Below are positions 29,402 through 36,549 of a stretch of 40,604 nucleotides of DNA, piece after piece. The position numbers and the translations under genes are program-made. The stretch is from the IMG/VR virus record IMGVR_UViG_2778261089_000001, positions 1 through 40,604 of that record; one strand, 5' to 3'. Numbering within the stretch: position 1 is the first letter of the stretch; each line of letters starts with the position of its first letter. Under the pieces are notes generated by a model. It was not told the origin of the DNA. It did no database searches and saw only the letters and a list, made by a program, of their open reading frames with translations. The DNA comes from a virus. Its lineage: Duplodnaviria > Heunggongvirae > Uroviricota > Caudoviricetes.

Positions 29402-29498
29402 ACGCCCTCCAAACTAAGTTTTATTAGATGCTAATTACAAATCTATCTTTGGTCAATAAAAACTAAGATTACTTAGCAATTCAAGAAATGGTGCTCCT
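29402..29498. promoter_or_regulatory. Divergent operator/promoter region (OR-like) between cro and cI
   Basis: Repeated AACTAAG motifs at 29412 and 29461; palindrome CTAAGATTACTTAG at 29463-29476. Confidence 0.55.
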
Positions 29499-30125
29499 AT
29501 GGAAACGGTTGGTCAGCGTATAAAAGCTCTGAGAAGAGTTACCGGAACGTCCCAGAAAGAATTGGGTAAATTTTGTGGAGTAAGCGACGTTGCTGTGGGG
29601 TACTGGGAGAAAGACATCAATACCCCTGGTGGGGAGGCACTTTCGAAATTAGCGAAGTTCTTCAATACGTCAATAGATTACATTCTTTATGGTGCTGAGT
29701 TTGAAGGCAAACTCGTCACAAACATGCGCAGAGTTCCTGTAATATCGTGGGTTCAGGCTGGGCAGTTTACTGAGTGCAGGGCAGCAGAAGTGTTTAGTGA
29801 AGTGGACAAGTGGGTAGATACATCATTAAAGATTGGTGATAACTCATTTGCATTAGAGGTTAAAGGTGACTCCATGACTAACCCTAATGGCCTCCCAACA
29901 ATACCAGAAGGCGCAACAGTGATTGTAGATCCAGATGCAGAACCTCGTCATGGAAAAATAGTCATCGCTCGACTTGATGGAACAAACGAAGCTACAGTAA
30001 AAAAATTAGTCATCGATGGCCCTCAAAAGTTTTTAGTGCCATTAAATCCTCGGTATCCCAACATCCCTATCAATGGTAATTGCCTTATCATTGGTGTAGT
30101 CAAAGGAGTTCAATACGAACTCTAA
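29499..30125 (+). CDS. cI: CI-type repressor (HTH_XRE N-terminus, S24 LexA-like peptidase C-terminus)
   Basis: 208 aa; HTH QKELGKFCGVSDVAVGYWE; C-terminal S24 region with GDSM serine motif. Confidence 0.85.
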   Translation: METVGQRIKALRRVTGTSQKELGKFCGVSDVAVGYWEKDINTPGGEALSKLAKFFNTSIDYILYGAEFEGKLVTNMRRVPVISWVQAGQFTECRAAEVFSEVDKWVDTSLKIGDNSFALEVKGDSMTNPNGLPTIPEGATVIVDPDAEPRHGKIVIARLDGTNEATVKKLVIDGPQKFLVPLNPRYPNIPINGNCLIIGVVKGVQYEL

Positions 30126-30129
30126 GACC

Positions 30130-30200
30130 TCTCTTCTCTAACTAAGGCACCGAACTAAGAAAAGTTTGGTGTTTTCTCTTGCCATAATAACTAAGTTAAG
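30130..30200. promoter_or_regulatory. Second operator cluster (OL-like) downstream of cI
   Basis: Same ACTAAG motif family as OR recurs at 30141, 30153 and 30189. Confidence 0.4.
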
Positions 30201-30331
30201 TTAGATTTTATATCAAAGATAACGAACAGGCAGGACGCCCACGAAGTAGCCGCCTGGGGCATATGAAGTCCAGGATGATTCGTTGAGTCATGTTGTGCCA
30301 CCAGGCACTCATGTTAAAGCAGGTGTATGAA

Positions 30332-30607
30332 ATGAAAGTCCAGATTTTAAACAATAACTGTGAAGTCGTTTGGTCATACGACATAGCCGCCCCTGTAGAT
30401 CAGAGCGGCGATAGCTGGACCAATGGGAAACATCAGATTATGGCTGGAGTTGTGTTCTCTTTACGCCGTGCTTTGGAACAGGCTGAAGTATTTCCATCAG
30501 ACCCTGAATGGAAATGGCCTTTTTCTATTTGTCCAAATTCGGAGAGCACATTTCAGAAAATTGGTCAGAAAGTCGCACTCGAAGAGCATCAGCCAACTGT
30601 TTCCTGA
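30332..30607 (+). CDS. Hypothetical protein, first ORF of leftward early operon
   Basis: 92 aa from ATG with AGGTG RBS; no family recognised. Confidence 0.4.
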   Translation: MKVQILNNNCEVVWSYDIAAPVDQSGDSWTNGKHQIMAGVVFSLRRALEQAEVFPSDPEWKWPFSICPNSESTFQKIGQKVALEEHQPTVS

Positions 30608-30770
30608 TTTTTTCAGGTAACTCGTCGGCATCGCAGAAACAACAACGCTCGATCATGTTGAAAGCCGATTCGTAGAACTGTTTCTGCTGAGTGTCGCTGA
30701 GACAGGAAAAGAGCGACGTTACGATGATTTTATTAATTGCATTATCAAGTTCTTTTTCATCAAAAGTCAT
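30525..30770 (-). CDS. Hypothetical small Cys-containing protein
   Basis: 81-aa ORF convergent with and overlapping previous ORF; weak RBS. Confidence 0.25.
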   Translation of the reverse strand: MTFDEKELDNAINKIIVTSLFSCLSDTQQKQFYESAFNMIERCCFCDADELPEKIRKQLADALRVRLSDQFSEMCSPNLDK

Positions 30771-31025
30771 TTGATTTTCATTTTATGTATACGGGCTTAA
30801 AAGGATACCACCGAGCCTGAAGTGGTGAAAAGACAGGCACATAACAGCTAAGTATTTTCAACCAAAGAGAATCCTTAGCGTTGTGGTGAATGAGGCTCAG
30901 CGCACGCGGGTTAAGATTGAGGCTGACAGTCGACCTTCTGTGGATACCCACCCGTCTGGTGTGCAACCTTCGCCAGGCACCGGGAGGCACCCGGCACCAC
31001 AACTTTATGCTGTGTGTAGTCTTGG

Positions 31026-31068
31026 CGGTACCAGCTTGTACCCTTGCTTCCGGCTGGTACCGTCCTTT
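31026..31068 (+). terminator. Rho-independent terminator-like hairpin (10-bp stem CGGTACCAGC/GCTGGTACCG plus T-run)
   Basis: Perfect 10-bp stem, 17-nt loop, followed by TCCTTTTTA. Confidence 0.45.
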
Positions 31069-31070
31069 TT

Positions 31071-31159
31071 ACAAAACAGAGAAGAGCATCACCGGACGAC
31101 GGGCTCATAACCCAATCCATCCGGGCGGCTGCCACCGCAGGTGTTCTTCTCTGTTTTGT
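31071..31159 (+). ncRNA. Candidate structured RNA element: 15-bp perfect inverted repeat enclosing a 59-nt GC-rich segment
   Basis: ACAAAACAGAGAAGA at 31071-31085 pairs with TCTTCTCTGTTTTGT at 31145-31159; region lacks a convincing ORF. Confidence 0.35.
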
Positions 31160-31283
31160 GGAGAAACTAACCGCCCCTACGGGGGCATTTATGGAAATGT
31201 AATTAACTCAATAATCGCCGGACGGTGAGGGCTTCCTTTTACCCGAGTTCAGCGCGGTGCAGCGCATATACGTGGAGAACAAA

Positions 31284-31820
31284 ATGTCATTTATTAAAAC
31301 TTTTTCCGGGAAGCATTTCTATTATGACAGGATAAATAAAAACGACATCGTTATTAACGATATCGCGGTTTCCCTTTCAAATATCTGTCGCTTTGCAGGA
31401 CATCTTTCACACTTCTACAGTGTCGCCCAACATGCGGTGCTTTGCAGCCAGTTGGTGCCGCAGGAATTTGCTTTTGAAGCTTTAATGCATGATGCAACAG
31501 AAGCGTATTGCCAGGACATCCCCGCACCACTGAAACGACTTCTTCCTGACTATAAACGGATGGAAGAAAAAATAGACGCCGTAATCCGTGAGAAATACGG
31601 GTTACCTCCTGTTATGAGCACGCCAGTGAAATATGCCGATCTCATCATGCTGGCAACCGAACGCCGCGATCTCGGGCTTGATGATGGCTCTTTCTGGCCT
31701 GTGCTGGAAGGTATCCCGGCAACAGAGATGTTCAACGTGATTCCACTGGCTCCAGGCCATGCCTACGGGATGTTTATGGAACGCTTTAACGAATTATCGG
31801 AGTTACGCAAATGCGCATGA
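31284..31820 (+). CDS. HD-domain phosphohydrolase-like protein
   Basis: H...HD motif (HFYSVAQHAV...MHDATEAY); start taken at MSFIKT. Confidence 0.5.
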   Translation: MSFIKTFSGKHFYYDRINKNDIVINDIAVSLSNICRFAGHLSHFYSVAQHAVLCSQLVPQEFAFEALMHDATEAYCQDIPAPLKRLLPDYKRMEEKIDAVIREKYGLPPVMSTPVKYADLIMLATERRDLGLDDGSFWPVLEGIPATEMFNVIPLAPGHAYGMFMERFNELSELRKCA

Positions 31821-33778: not shown

Positions 33779-33835
33779 CCCATGTCTGAACTGTTGGCCA
33801 CCATTTGTGGCCATTTCATTGAACAAGGTACACAC

Positions 33836-35569
33836 ATGGCAAATCAAATAACTAAACTAAAAAAAATAAACGTTGTAAAATTCCGGGGGCTAAAAAATAT
33901 AAATATAGAATTTGGAACTCGCCTAACTGTTATTTGTGGGAAAAATGGCACATCTAAATCAACAATTCTTGGTATTATCGCCCAGATTTTCAGTTTTACA
34001 AAAGACTTATCTAAGAATCCTGAGATTGATTTAACACAATATAAGACATTAACTAATGGCAACTTCAAGTCAGCTTTCAGTGAGCATTTTAGACTCTCAG
34101 AACAATTTGATACTGCTGGTTCAATGGACGTCAAGATTAGTGTCTATGATGGAGCATTTAACAAACATCTTGAAAAACTAACATTGGGTCTATACAGTTC
34201 CAGCGACAGGGATAAATCAAGACCAATAGTCAGGGGTAATGATTCTATCCCGGGGAAAAACCAAAGTAGAAACGTTACCCATCCTGTTATTTTTTTAAGC
34301 TTAGCCAGGCTTCTCCCTATTACCCTTCGTACTGATTACTCAACAAGAGATGTTGAGTATATCAAGAAAAATGCTGATGATATAAGAATAATGAGTAATC
34401 AACTCTTATTAAAAAACAATGGATGTTCAGTAACAGCCACAAAAGGGATTATTGATTCAATGGTTGTACATGGTGATAATTATGACTACCAATCAGTTTC
34501 TGTTGGTGAAGATAATGTAGGACAATTAATCCAAGCAATATTTTCGTTTAAAAGGCTGAAAGAACTGTATGATGACTATCATGGAGGTATTTTATTAATT
34601 GATGAAGCGGATGCAGGTCTCTTCCCTGCGGCTCAGTTAGAATTAATTAACATCCTAACCAAAGCTGCTAAAAAATATGATTTGCAAATAATCATGACAT
34701 CTCATTCCCCACTAATAATTGAAGATGTTTTCAATCGTTCCAAACAAGACCCCAAAGGCTTCAAAACAATCTACCTAACAGATACTTATGGTGATATAAA
34801 AACAAAAGATAACTTATCATGGGCTGATATAAATGCGGATTTACATGTTGAGACGGTAAAAATCGATGATAAGATTAGTCTTCCAAAAGCTAACGTTTAT
34901 TTTGAAGATAAAGAAGGCTTTGATTTTTTCAAACAATTGATAACTGACAGAAGAATAAAAAAAATATTAAATCCATTAGGAAATATAAATATTAGCTGCT
35001 CTGCCATTTTGGATTTAATGGCAAGAAAAATCCCTGAATTTACAATTAAAAGTCTGGTGGTCTTAGACGGCGATGTTGCTCTAGATAACAGTGATAATGC
35101 AAAAAAAGCAAAAAAAGAGAAAAGCTTATGCTTACTTCCAAGCATCCTACCTCCAGACCAAATGATTTTCGAATTTTTATATAATTTACCTCCTGATGAT
35201 GTATATTGGAACAATACAAATAGGTTCACAAAAGCTGTATTTTTGAGAATAGCTAAAGATATAATCACATCATTAAAGATAGGTAACTACCCTATTAACT
35301 TACAAAACTTAATAGATAATTATAGAAAAGAAAATCAAAACCATGGTGGAACGGTTAGAAAACTTTTTAAAGATTTTGCACACACGCCTCAATTTCAGGC
35401 TCTAGTCAAAGGACGAGTTAAAAATAACCCATATCGATATTGGGTCAAGAAAAATCCTGAGCAATCTGATCGTTTCAGGAATGAACTAATAAAGAGCCTT
35501 AAAGTTATTATGACAAGTGGACATGGTGTTGATTCTGCTACCATCTCATCATATCTTTCAGATAACTAA
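33836..35569 (+). CDS. OLD-family-like ABC ATPase (Walker A GKNGTSKST, Walker B LLIDEADAG) with C-terminal Toprim-like region
   Basis: P-loop, D-loop and SHSP motifs; C-terminal EDKEG and VVLDGD acidic motifs; AT-rich; ORF track start at 33782. Confidence 0.65.
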   Translation: MANQITKLKKINVVKFRGLKNINIEFGTRLTVICGKNGTSKSTILGIIAQIFSFTKDLSKNPEIDLTQYKTLTNGNFKSAFSEHFRLSEQFDTAGSMDVKISVYDGAFNKHLEKLTLGLYSSSDRDKSRPIVRGNDSIPGKNQSRNVTHPVIFLSLARLLPITLRTDYSTRDVEYIKKNADDIRIMSNQLLLKNNGCSVTATKGIIDSMVVHGDNYDYQSVSVGEDNVGQLIQAIFSFKRLKELYDDYHGGILLIDEADAGLFPAAQLELINILTKAAKKYDLQIIMTSHSPLIIEDVFNRSKQDPKGFKTIYLTDTYGDIKTKDNLSWADINADLHVETVKIDDKISLPKANVYFEDKEGFDFFKQLITDRRIKKILNPLGNINISCSAILDLMARKIPEFTIKSLVVLDGDVALDNSDNAKKAKKEKSLCLLPSILPPDQMIFEFLYNLPPDDVYWNNTNRFTKAVFLRIAKDIITSLKIGNYPINLQNLIDNYRKENQNHGGTVRKLFKDFAHTPQFQALVKGRVKNNPYRYWVKKNPEQSDRFRNELIKSLKVIMTSGHGVDSATISSYLSDN

Positions 35570-35649
35570 TTGATTAAAAAGGGTTTTATGTGATGTCCAT
35601 AAAGCCCTTTTTTTTGATATACTCTAGATCTGACATTTAGAGGTATCAT

Positions 35650-36549
35650 ATGCGTTTTAACACCCCACTTCGCTATCCTGGCGGTAAAGGCAAGCTTGCA
35701 AATTTCATACTTCGGATTATTGAAGAAAATAATCTTTCGCCTATACATTATGCCGAACCATATGCTGGAGGGGCTGGCTTAGCATTGAAACTTTTACATT
35801 TAAATGCAGCTGAAAAAATCATCCTTAATGATATTAATATTTCTGTTTATGCTTTTTGGTACAGTGTATTAAATCATGCAGATCAATTATGTTCTTTAAT
35901 TGAAAGAACTGAAGTTACAATGGATGAATGGTTTAAGCAGAAAGATATAATTAATAATCCGAAAGACCATGATCTTTTAACAATTGGTTTCTCAACCTTT
36001 TTTCTCAATAGAACAAATCGTTCTGGAATATTAAAAGGTGGAGTAATTGGCGGTAAAAATCAAGAAGGAAAATGGAAGCTTGACGCTCGCTATAATAAGA
36101 GTGATTTGATTTCTCGAATCCATAAAATATCAGAAAATCGTCACAGAATAGATTTATATAACATGGATGCAATTGATTTCATTGAAAAAATAGTCATTCA
36201 ATTGCCACAAAACTCATTAACATATTTGGATCCACCTTATTACATAAAAGGTAAAGGTTTATATATCAACCATTATGATCATGATGATCATGTTAGGGTT
36301 GCAAAAGTCGTACAGAATAATATTAAAACGCCTTGGATTGTTTCTTACGATAACACTCCTGAGATCCAAGCTATGTATAAGACATCATCATTAGTATATG
36401 GAATAAACTACAGTGCTCAAGATCGGTACAAAGGATCTGAGGTAATGTTCTTCAGTGAACGGTTGAAAATCTTTAAAACAGATGATCCAACTAAGGTAAA
36501 AGCACCTGTATTTAAAAGAGGATATGTTGACGACCACATCCAGACATAA
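35650..36549 (+). CDS. D12-class N6-adenine DNA methyltransferase (Dam-like)
   Basis: Motifs RYPGGK, EPYAGGAG and catalytic DPPY; AT-rich. Confidence 0.85.
   Translation: MRFNTPLRYPGGKGKLANFILRIIEENNLSPIHYAEPYAGGAGLALKLLHLNAAEKIILNDINISVYAFWYSVLNHADQLCSLIERTEVTMDEWFKQKDIINNPKDHDLLTIGFSTFFLNRTNRSGILKGGVIGGKNQEGKWKLDARYNKSDLISRIHKISENRHRIDLYNMDAIDFIEKIVIQLPQNSLTYLDPPYYIKGKGLYINHYDHDDHVRVAKVVQNNIKTPWIVSYDNTPEIQAMYKTSSLVYGINYSAQDRYKGSEVMFFSERLKIFKTDDPTKVKAPVFKRGYVDDHIQT

Follow-up and report, generated by a model that had tools for sequence, protein, structure and literature searches.

KilS (b4833), a small RNA (sRNA) of the Rac prophage of Escherichia coli K-12, has been verified by Northern blotting and detected by RIL-seq, the sequencing of ligated interacting RNAs (Bar et al. 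2021, PMC8175672), and DicF is reported to be made by termination and RNase III/RNase E processing (Faubladier et al. 1990). PasD1 and PasD2 of enteropathogenic E. coli (EPEC) represent a validated Hfq-dependent sRNA (Pearl Mizrahi 2021, PMC8550237), which, from its structure, has been placed with STnc100 as a relative (Zhu, Shabalina and Storz 2026 preprint). The put RNA, finally, comprises about 70 nt in two stems and occurs as putL and putR, one per early operon (PMC9378689). Here we compare with these systems a 490-bp region (30771-31260) between the repressor gene cI and a yfdR homologue in IMG/VR record IMGVR_UViG_2778261089_000001, whose full stretch of 40,604 nucleotides is called the window in the following. 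It represents an E. coli prophage of SfV/SfII-like type. An earlier note, made from its letters alone, had marked the region as structured non-coding DNA. Compared sequences are cited by our L and H numbers where needed.

We assign a probability of roughly 0.6 to the reading that the region is the non-coding leader of a cI-repressed PL-type operon and encodes a composite regulatory RNA on the plus strand. Alignment with SfV, ST64B, sal3, phiES15, phiNP, mEp460 and As1 resolves a mosaic of modules in the order block H0, element A, a single-stranded stretch, terminator B, hairpin C, a GGAGAAAC motif and hairpin D (Table 1), each of which also occurs separately in other phages. The window has the arrangement of STnc100 and PasD, i.e. 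domain, seed and terminator, with a seed and a terminator of KilS type. What is new is the fusion of a KilS-family sRNA module to a divergent STnc100/PasD-class domain within an early-left operon; the element is kin of known E. coli prophage RNAs and not unprecedented. This reading is built on sequence comparison and predicted folds, and expression of the locus is itself predicted.

Relation to KilS and DicF

By sequence similarity, positions 31008-31070 are a homologue of the Hfq-associated sRNA KilS. The local alignment score is 46 compared with 14.2 +/- 2.1 for dinucleotide shuffles, none of which (0/2000) scored as high, and 51 of the 67 alignment columns are identical. The 14-mer UGCUGUGUGUAGUC, our candidate for a single-stranded seed, is identical to the matching stretch of K-12 KilS, and both elements share the same GGCGG...CCGCC-type terminator with a U-tail. 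Besides, both are located in a repressor-controlled early-left operon of a lambdoid prophage and adjoin a copy of element A. The arrangement differs, as the order in Rac is H0-like block, KilS, element A and kilR, whereas the window has element A, the KilS-like module, hairpin C and yfdR. The window moreover lacks two features of KilS, namely a 5' part of 33 nt and a separate transcription start reported for it. KilS is located in the 5' untranslated region (UTR) of kilR, while the module in the window lies 3' of element A and before yfdR (yfdP in SfV). In RIL-seq, yncL is the partner of KilS. Variants upstream of kilR (positions -25 to +137 of kilR) do not bear on element A (PMC12711010). A phage sRNA had been offered by the earlier note merely as a fallback; with this homology to a Northern-verified RNA of the Rac prophage it is now the best-supported reading.

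While the stems on either side vary, the seed stretch is nearly constant in SfV, phiES15, phiNP and, with one substitution, ST64B/sal3; of these, phiNP is devoid of element A. In phiES15, a unit of element A, seed and terminator is found ahead of kil. Terminator B shows the GC-rich 12-13-bp stem followed by U5 of an intrinsic terminator, and our terminator scan missed it because the scan is limited to loops of 8 nt. The perfect 10-bp hairpin followed by a T-run that had been noticed before is indeed present (arms 31026-31035/31053-31062, TTTTT at 31066-31070). Its stem sequence is replaced in ST64B/sal3 and phiES15, whereas hairpin and U-run are retained, which is what a functional intrinsic terminator predicts, and the terminator part of the earlier interpretation is therefore borne out as a conserved feature.

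Similarity to DicF is more restricted. Terminator B aligns to DicF with a score of 25 (shuffles 13.9 +/- 2.3; 1/1000 reach it), and the two terminator modules are similar (UUGGCGGUAYCAG...CCGYCCUUUUU). Also alike are the place in the operon (repressor, small open reading frames (ORFs), sRNA, early-left genes) and, in K-12, the adjoining copy of element A, whereas the 5' seed of DicF is a different one. The Rfam model of DicF (RF00039) reaches only 19.4 bits on the window (E 0.26, cut-off 48), compared with 76.7 bits on K-12 dicF. Pairing of the KilS-like module with the ftsZ leader, as calculated with RNAduplex, yields -37.4 kcal/mol versus -36.3 +/- 4.1 kcal/mol for shuffles (185/500 as good), a comparison that is weak for DicF itself as well (49/500).

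Element A and the STnc100/PasD class

Element A is a genuine RNA fold. Scanning IMG/VR and a single genome for each species with patterns yielded many divergent copies, which come from Escherichia, Shigella, Salmonella, Klebsiella, Raoultella, Enterobacter, Citrobacter, Pantoea, Mixta and a Cronobacter phage. All follow one architecture: P1 of 9 bp, an AA linker, P1a of 4 bp, a CG linker, P2 of 4 bp with a long variable arm, P3 of 6-7 bp, a CA linker, P4 and the return strand of P1. The 9-bp helix (30880-30888/30995-31003) that closes this conserved multi-branch domain, the feature that tells most about the region, is absent from the earlier note. In an alignment of 18 sequences with the variable interiors trimmed, 96.6% of the cells are paired (96.6-96.8% across alignments), compared with 30-44% if the partners are slid against each other. 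Both-side changes affect thirteen pairs (13-18 across alignments), among them the six of P3, as well as 7/7 pairs of the pseudoknot, although the counts for P2, P3 and the pseudoknot are inflated by the pairing-based parse that placed their strands; P1, P1a and P4 were placed by fixed offsets. The cleanest evidence for the pseudoknot comes from three close relatives, L043, L109 and L150, in which the arm UGGUUA[A/G/U] is mirrored by the loop [U/C/A]UAACCA (A-U, G-C and U-A, respectively). Since shuffle tests of the pseudoknot in individual sequences are weak alone (p mostly 0.005-0.2), its case rests on the covariation between subtypes. G-U pairs in P1 and P3 assign the fold to the plus strand, and hardly any variation is seen in the junction strands and in two of the loops. 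Folding and covariance analysis across relatives, as the earlier note had proposed, finds conserved paired bases, both here and in hairpin C.

A covariance model built by us from the element A family, R1, matches the window once, with 51.7 bits and E 7e-15, and likewise finds a single copy in the whole SfV genome. ARAGORN detects no tRNA or tmRNA in the window and the Rfam E-value scan no tRNA match; therefore, the tRNA likeness of element A (four arms plus an extra arm, short linkers) is only topological. Strings taken from the sequence of element A gave no match in the full-text literature. As a separate observation, mEp460 (L003 3847-3994, 26.3 bits) retains P1 and a P4-like hairpin around a wholly different interior, and this sequence suggests that the interior was swapped inside the conserved closing helix.

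The kinship between element A and STnc100 is detected in both directions. On the Rfam STnc100 model (RF02076) element A obtains 35.6 bits (E 9.3e-6), which is below the gathering cut-off of 47, and the relatives of the window obtain 35.1-40.6 bits. The Rfam scan that had been suggested earlier thus returns a significant match, but one that stays under the cut-off. For calibration, a true STnc100 copy scores 101.6, PasD1 37.7 and the K-12 dicB leader 34.4 bits with the same model, so that element A is about as far from STnc100 as PasD is (35.6 versus 37.7 bits). Conversely, R1 detects genuine STnc100 copies end to end with 27-40 bits (E 1e-6 to 1e-10). In E. coli K-12, R1 finds the dicF-dicB spacer with 82.6 bits (L169 2436-2600) and the kilS-kilR spacer with 44.8 bits (L297 2385-2269, minus strand), and the K-12 RefSeq record has no feature annotated at either spacer.

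STnc100 and element A share the multi-branch fold with its (U)GGUG/CACC(A) closing helix and the invariant CCGGG-AGGCA-CCCGG hairpin adjoining the 3' strand of P1, and in STnc100 as in the window the domain is followed by a single-stranded stretch and an intrinsic terminator. They differ in P1a and in the P2 arm, and also in their genomic place: STnc100 is a late-region element (Q ... stx/nanS-p ... lysis) with its own promoter, whereas element A is early-left, between cI and yfdR. PasD likewise combines a structured STnc100-related 5' domain with a proposed seed, which immediately precedes the terminator on its 5' side, and with a U-tail. It differs by loss of the 3' half of P4 (12 bits on R1), by its seed UGUGAG, by its late-region location and by a promoter of its own. 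Both STnc100 and PasD carry a TTGACT-17-TAAAAAT promoter directly 5' of P1, and the early-left copies lack a comparable one. The 3' parts of PasD and STnc100 show no significant similarity to terminator B, as 272/1000 and 71/1000 shuffles, respectively, reach the same score. PasB and two further sRNA candidates of strain E2348/69 (the PP10 5' UTR and the PP6 1408-1409 spacer) were also considered; they are unrelated loci, one among structural genes and the other in the late region. Independent of the window, STnc100-class domains occur in tandem arrays, with four copies within about 1 kb in L173 (2321-3360) and three in L195 (2738-4968).

The copy in the window carries two private substitutions: A30893 breaks a P1a pair that holds in 21/21 other aligned sequences, and A30916 breaks a pair of the pseudoknot. 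This variant is represented by 2/116 sampled copies, namely the window and an identical E. coli match, and may reflect chance or early decay. In the latter case, the family would be functional while selection on the window copy is gone. The rarity of the variant, the small number of E. coli records that are at least 99% identical to the region (only 8) and the deletion of yfdP-yfdQ described below would fit such a decaying relic. As most positions of the domain are paired, however, two pair-breaking changes are not unlikely by chance; R1 still scores 51.7 bits, seed, terminator and hairpin C are intact, and the viable phage SfII shares the yfdPQ deletion. On balance, we regard a relic as very unlikely.

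Operon setting and coding potential

The setting of the region is that of an early-left operon. Since cI is encoded on the plus strand and Cro and CII on the minus strand, the plus strand corresponds to the leftward direction of lambda. The operator motif AACTAAG-N6-TTAG is found twice in the cI-cro spacer (29411-29427 and 29460-29476), and a third copy overlaps a promoter-like site downstream of cI, which identifies the plus strand downstream as a PL-type operon and supports the earlier placement of the region in the leftward early transcript. From its sequence, the combination of operator and promoter-like site at 30179-30207 reads as OL/PL. The terminator-like hairpin distal to cI corresponds to a position at which the SfV annotation places a terminator. 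One small ORF (30311-30607) precedes the region, and yfdR, yfdS, yfdT, xis and int follow. In every annotated relative examined, i.e. SfV, mEp460, ST64B, sal3, phiES15, phiNP and the K-12 prophages Qin and Rac, the element resides between the repressor and the first early-left genes; phiNP counts here with its seed, terminator and hairpin C only.

The region is 100% identical to an E. coli chromosome from chicken and 97-98% identical to phages SKA5, SfII and SfV, and some part of the region occurs in 2787/5426 complete E. coli genomes (about half). Relative to SfV, yfdP-yfdQ (SfV orf32 and orf31) are deleted from the window, a deletion common to SfII and SKA5, and yfdR is the first gene past the leader in this lineage. 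The junction consists of 12 nt (31173-31184) that by BLAST match SfV on both sides of the deleted segment (L001 3403-3414 and 4707-4718).

In agreement with the earlier note, the region is non-coding. Compared with the ST64B copy (77% identical), the 58 substitutions are spread evenly by codon phase (21/18/19), and every frame is broken by indels, which measure 1, 1 and 20 nt. Five of the six frames contain ORFs of 52-112 aa that overlap the region, but no frame is open in all relatives compared and none of the tested ORF translations has a Pfam match. The lack of codon-phase bias, the frame-breaking indels, the missing Pfam matches and RNA-type covariation with G-U pairs together lead to this conclusion. 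The opposite case would be a small protein, such as the 'hypothetical protein' called by the Prokaryotic Genome Annotation Pipeline (PGAP), SfII_35 (112 aa) or a minus-strand ORF of phrog_3651 type. ORFs of 74-112 aa do exist, annotators have called coding sequences (CDSs) here, and some translations match PHROG families, e.g. phrog_3651 at E 4e-49. Yet PGAP calls the region only as a 'frameshifted hypothetical protein', so that the call requires a frameshift, and of the 162 profile positions the minus-strand ORF matches 88-160 only. The PHROG matches are translated, conserved non-coding DNA, and we consider a coding function extremely unlikely. The claimed GC-richness was also found: G+C peaks at 0.55 over 30850-31149, compared with 0.38-0.46 in the flanks.

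Downstream of terminator B, the perfect 15-bp inverted repeat of the earlier note (31071-31085/31145-31159, 59 nt enclosed) is the core of a larger 25-nt arm pair with 84% complementarity. Folded from 31066, the repeat becomes the 25-bp basal stem of hairpin C, which has a minimum free energy (MFE) of -63 kcal/mol (z = -7.4; 0/200 shuffles as stable). Across 15 variants the stem is paired to 98.4%; two of its pairs show both-side changes, there are several G-U/G-C switches, and because its U-G pairs would mismatch on the minus strand it is assigned to the plus strand. The segment 31022-31184 is 94% shared with mEp460 and Stx2c phages. As the base of hairpin C pairs the U-run of the terminator with GUGGAGA, it is expected to form on read-through RNA only. 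Hairpin C has the length of RNase III substrates (near-perfect duplex of at least about 20 bp) and is plausibly a site at which RNase III would separate the sRNA from the downstream mRNA. A comparable layout is predicted for K-12, where in Qin a helix of about 21 bp, an extended P1 of element A, directly follows the sRNA terminator in the fold and the same complementarity is visible by eye in the Rac sequence.

Table 1. Sequence features of the region and its surroundings in the window.
Feature	Position	Strand	Description
Cro		minus	P22_Cro (Pfam)
CII		minus	CP76-type
cI	29499-30125	plus	HTH_3 + Peptidase_S24 (Pfam)
cI-distal terminator-like hairpin	30148-30155 / 30164-30171	plus	followed by T-run
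PL-type promoter-like site	30179-30207	plus	TTGCCA-17-TAGATT; promoter scan
Operator copy AACTAAGTTAAGTTAG	30189-30204		operator family D1/D2; overlaps promoter-like site
Block H0	30802-30847	plus	hairpin ACCAC-N10-GTGGT (30807-30826), then GAAAAGACAGGCACATAAC
Hairpin with 13-nt arms	30847-30879	plus	85% complementary; MFE fold; directly adjoins element A
Element A	30880-31003	plus	pseudoknotted five-way-junction RNA domain, STnc100/PasD class
Element A, P1	30880-30888 / 30995-31003	plus	9 bp; AA linker to P1a
Element A, P1a	30891-30894 / 30901-30904	plus	4 bp; CG linker to P2
Element A, P2	30907-30910 / 30951-30954	plus	4 bp; closes 40-nt arm
Element A, pseudoknot	30913-30919 with 30964-30970	plus	start of P2 arm to P3 loop
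Element A, P3	30955-30961 / 30971-30977	plus	CA linker to P4
Element A, P4	30980-30984 / 30990-30994	plus	5 bp; loop AGGCA
Seed candidate UGCUGUGUGUAGUC	31008-31021	plus	single-stranded
Terminator B	31024-31070	plus	intrinsic terminator, 3' Hfq-type module; stem 12-13 bp (31024-31036 / 31052-31064), U-run 31066-31070
Hairpin C	31066-31164	plus	Y-shaped; 25-bp basal stem (31066-31090 / 31140-31164), two small apical hairpins
GGAGAAAC motif	31160-31167	plus	kept in 6/6 sequences reaching it
Small hairpin D	31173-31186	plus	fold; 31173-31184 is the yfdP-yfdQ deletion junction
yfdR homologue	31284-31820	plus	HD-type 5'-deoxynucleotidase; PGAP on identical locus; Pfam YfbR-like/HD_3, both weak

The position of element A in the operon also raises the question of processive antitermination, either put-like and independent of a dedicated protein or nut-like with recruitment of Nus factors, by which RNA polymerase would pass terminator B and later terminators to reach xis-int. 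By map place, element A indeed resembles HK022 put and lambda nutL/tL, which are structured RNAs early in the PL transcript and ahead of terminators; in about half of the subtypes it is located directly upstream of an intrinsic terminator, a boxA-like UGCUCUYUYC lies 5-10 nt ahead of P1 in several subtypes, and the first ORF has no match to an N-like protein family in Pfam. The put-like half of the earlier proposal is nevertheless not supported by architecture and copy number, as a five-way junction of about 124 nt that is present once in the window and in SfV, and missing from the rightward operon of both, contrasts with the pair of two-stem put RNAs. With filters off, R1 obtains at best 6.8 bits (E 0.7) on HK022 24-32 kb, a segment expected, not confirmed, to hold putL and putR. 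A nut-like site is not established either: copies of the window, Qin and Rac types lack the boxA-like motif, we identified no boxB-type small hairpin, and no N homologue was found in a search confined to Pfam on the first ORF. Moreover, the terminator is upstream and not downstream of element A in Qin and Rac, and STnc100 copies have their own promoter and terminator. Altogether, antitermination appears distinctly unlikely; of the earlier overall interpretation, the terminator and the sRNA stand and the put/nut-like antiterminator is not supported. The boxA-like motif itself precedes P1 in L008, L043, L087, L109, L124, L137, L150 and L158 (CGCUCUCAAC in L158).

Upstream of element A, block H0 is 95-97% identical in Klebsiella phages (H100-H105), and is present in sal3 and phiES15; K-12 Rac has an H0-like counterpart ahead of kilS (L297 about 2610-2560, minus strand). 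H0, with the hairpin ACCAC...GTGGT followed by GAAAAGACAGGCACAYAAC, accompanies element A in several hosts; read on the minus strand, it scores terminator-like. ST64B has a different hairpin at the place of the 30847-30879 hairpin.

Further observations concern the neighbourhood of the leader. A possible mini-ORF of 5-14 codons, (G/A)UG GAG AAA..., begins in the conserved GUGGAGAAAC motif (31158-31202 in the window, homologous positions in L001, L005, L010, L124 and L054). It has no Shine-Dalgarno (SD) sequence of its own and stops just ahead of the SD of the next gene in several subtypes; in Rac and L054, GGAGA itself is the SD of the downstream gene. The ORFs 30311-30607 (plus) and 30525-30770 (minus) overlap by 83 nt on opposite strands, each with a full-length PHROG match (phrog_3195 and phrog_3311, respectively), and the latter, if a true gene, would be antisense to the PL transcript. 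The rightward operons of SfV (L001 263-451), ST64B (L005 407-595) and mEp460 (L003 1324-1512) contain IsrK and C4 antisense RNAs (immI-like module). The window instead has its CP76-type CII and shows no Rfam match at the gathering threshold anywhere. Directly past int, 33782-36549 encodes a 595-aa ABC-type ATPase similar to PtuA/GajA/AriA (E 1e-17 to 3e-20) and a methyltransferase matching PD-Lambda-5_B (E 7e-124), and by these similarities probably represents a cassette for anti-phage defence that lies at the end of the prophage.

Regulatory role and meaning for related prophages

According to the reading we favour, transcription would start at the operator-covered promoter around 30179-30207 and proceed through the small ORF into element A and then into a module of KilS/DicF type, consisting of the seed and the strong intrinsic terminator (31008-31021 and 31024-31070). 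Most transcripts would end at terminator B, and the 3' end of the resulting RNA would have the usual Hfq-binding layout of seed, GC-rich hairpin and U-tail. Such an RNA may act in trans on host or phage mRNAs. The product could be a species of about 190 nt that comprises element A, seed and terminator, as in PasD, or a shorter processed RNA of KilS size. Terminator B would also serve as a barrier ahead of yfdR...xis-int. In read-through RNA, the U-run would be drawn into the 25-bp hairpin C, a likely RNase III site at which cleavage would free the sRNA from the downstream mRNA.

Several points weigh against this scheme. By sequence reading, there is no convincing promoter directly 5' of element A, so that the RNA would be silent in a repressed lysogen. 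One candidate, AAGACA-17-TATTTT (30830-30858), was judged by reading and is not relied on, as its hexamers are weak and not conserved in relatives. The order of modules, element A followed by the sRNA, is reversed in Rac and Qin, and in several subtypes no terminator adjoins element A, which lies 35-90 nt before an ORF; this fits a role in cis better. Besides, the parse used for P2, P3 and the pseudoknot favours pairing, and the two pair-breaking private substitutions may mean that the window copy is impaired.

A mainly cis-acting element A is therefore kept as an alternative, since it is the constant part of the family and often lies 35-90 nt before an ORF without an intervening terminator. 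As a leader, for instance a switch that binds a protein or ligand, a signal for processing or stability or a gate on translation, it would govern the downstream genes (dicB, kilR, kil, yfdP/sb37), and the sRNA modules would be separate units that share the leader. Qin and Rac indeed have these modules 5' of element A, the window, ST64B, phiES15, STnc100 and PasD have them 3' of it, and elsewhere they are missing; the ORF start 35-90 nt past P1 recurs in several subtypes. Near-invariant junction strands and two loops together with a pseudoknot are as expected for a specific tertiary fold, and in K-12 the domain precedes the toxic cell-division inhibitors dicB and kilR. On the other hand, we found no expression platform and no alternative SD pairing, in STnc100 and PasD the domain makes up the 5' end of free-standing sRNAs that have promoters of their own, and the next gene in the window is about 280 nt away, past the terminator and hairpin C. 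For these reasons, we regard a mainly cis-acting leader as possible but rather unlikely. Only tentatively, element A could represent a previously undescribed class of cis-acting leaders that gates early-left genes including dicB and kilR in K-12. It might then be a protein-independent elongation modifier or a switch that senses a protein or a small molecule, and the STnc100 and PasD 'sRNAs' would be free-standing derivatives of the element A domain.

For the favoured composite RNA as for the family as a whole, the comparison has consequences beyond the window. Temperate phages of Salmonella and Cronobacter have the junction domain, as do genomes of Klebsiella, Pantoea, Enterobacter and others. 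Any annotation it has is that of a frameshifted hypothetical protein, and its recognition as RNA removes spurious CDS calls. The KilS/DicF group of sRNAs is extended to phages of SfV/SfII/ST64B type, with a seed identical to that of KilS. One pseudoknotted five-way-junction domain joins three RNAs that had been described apart from each other: STnc100, PasD and, without annotation so far, the dicF-dicB and kilS-kilR spacers of K-12. With this well-supported fold in front of both dicB and kilR, the shared domain offers a concrete, mutable target for studying how these toxic genes stay silent and are then released, and it provides a handle on the role of the structured 5' domain of STnc100 and PasD.

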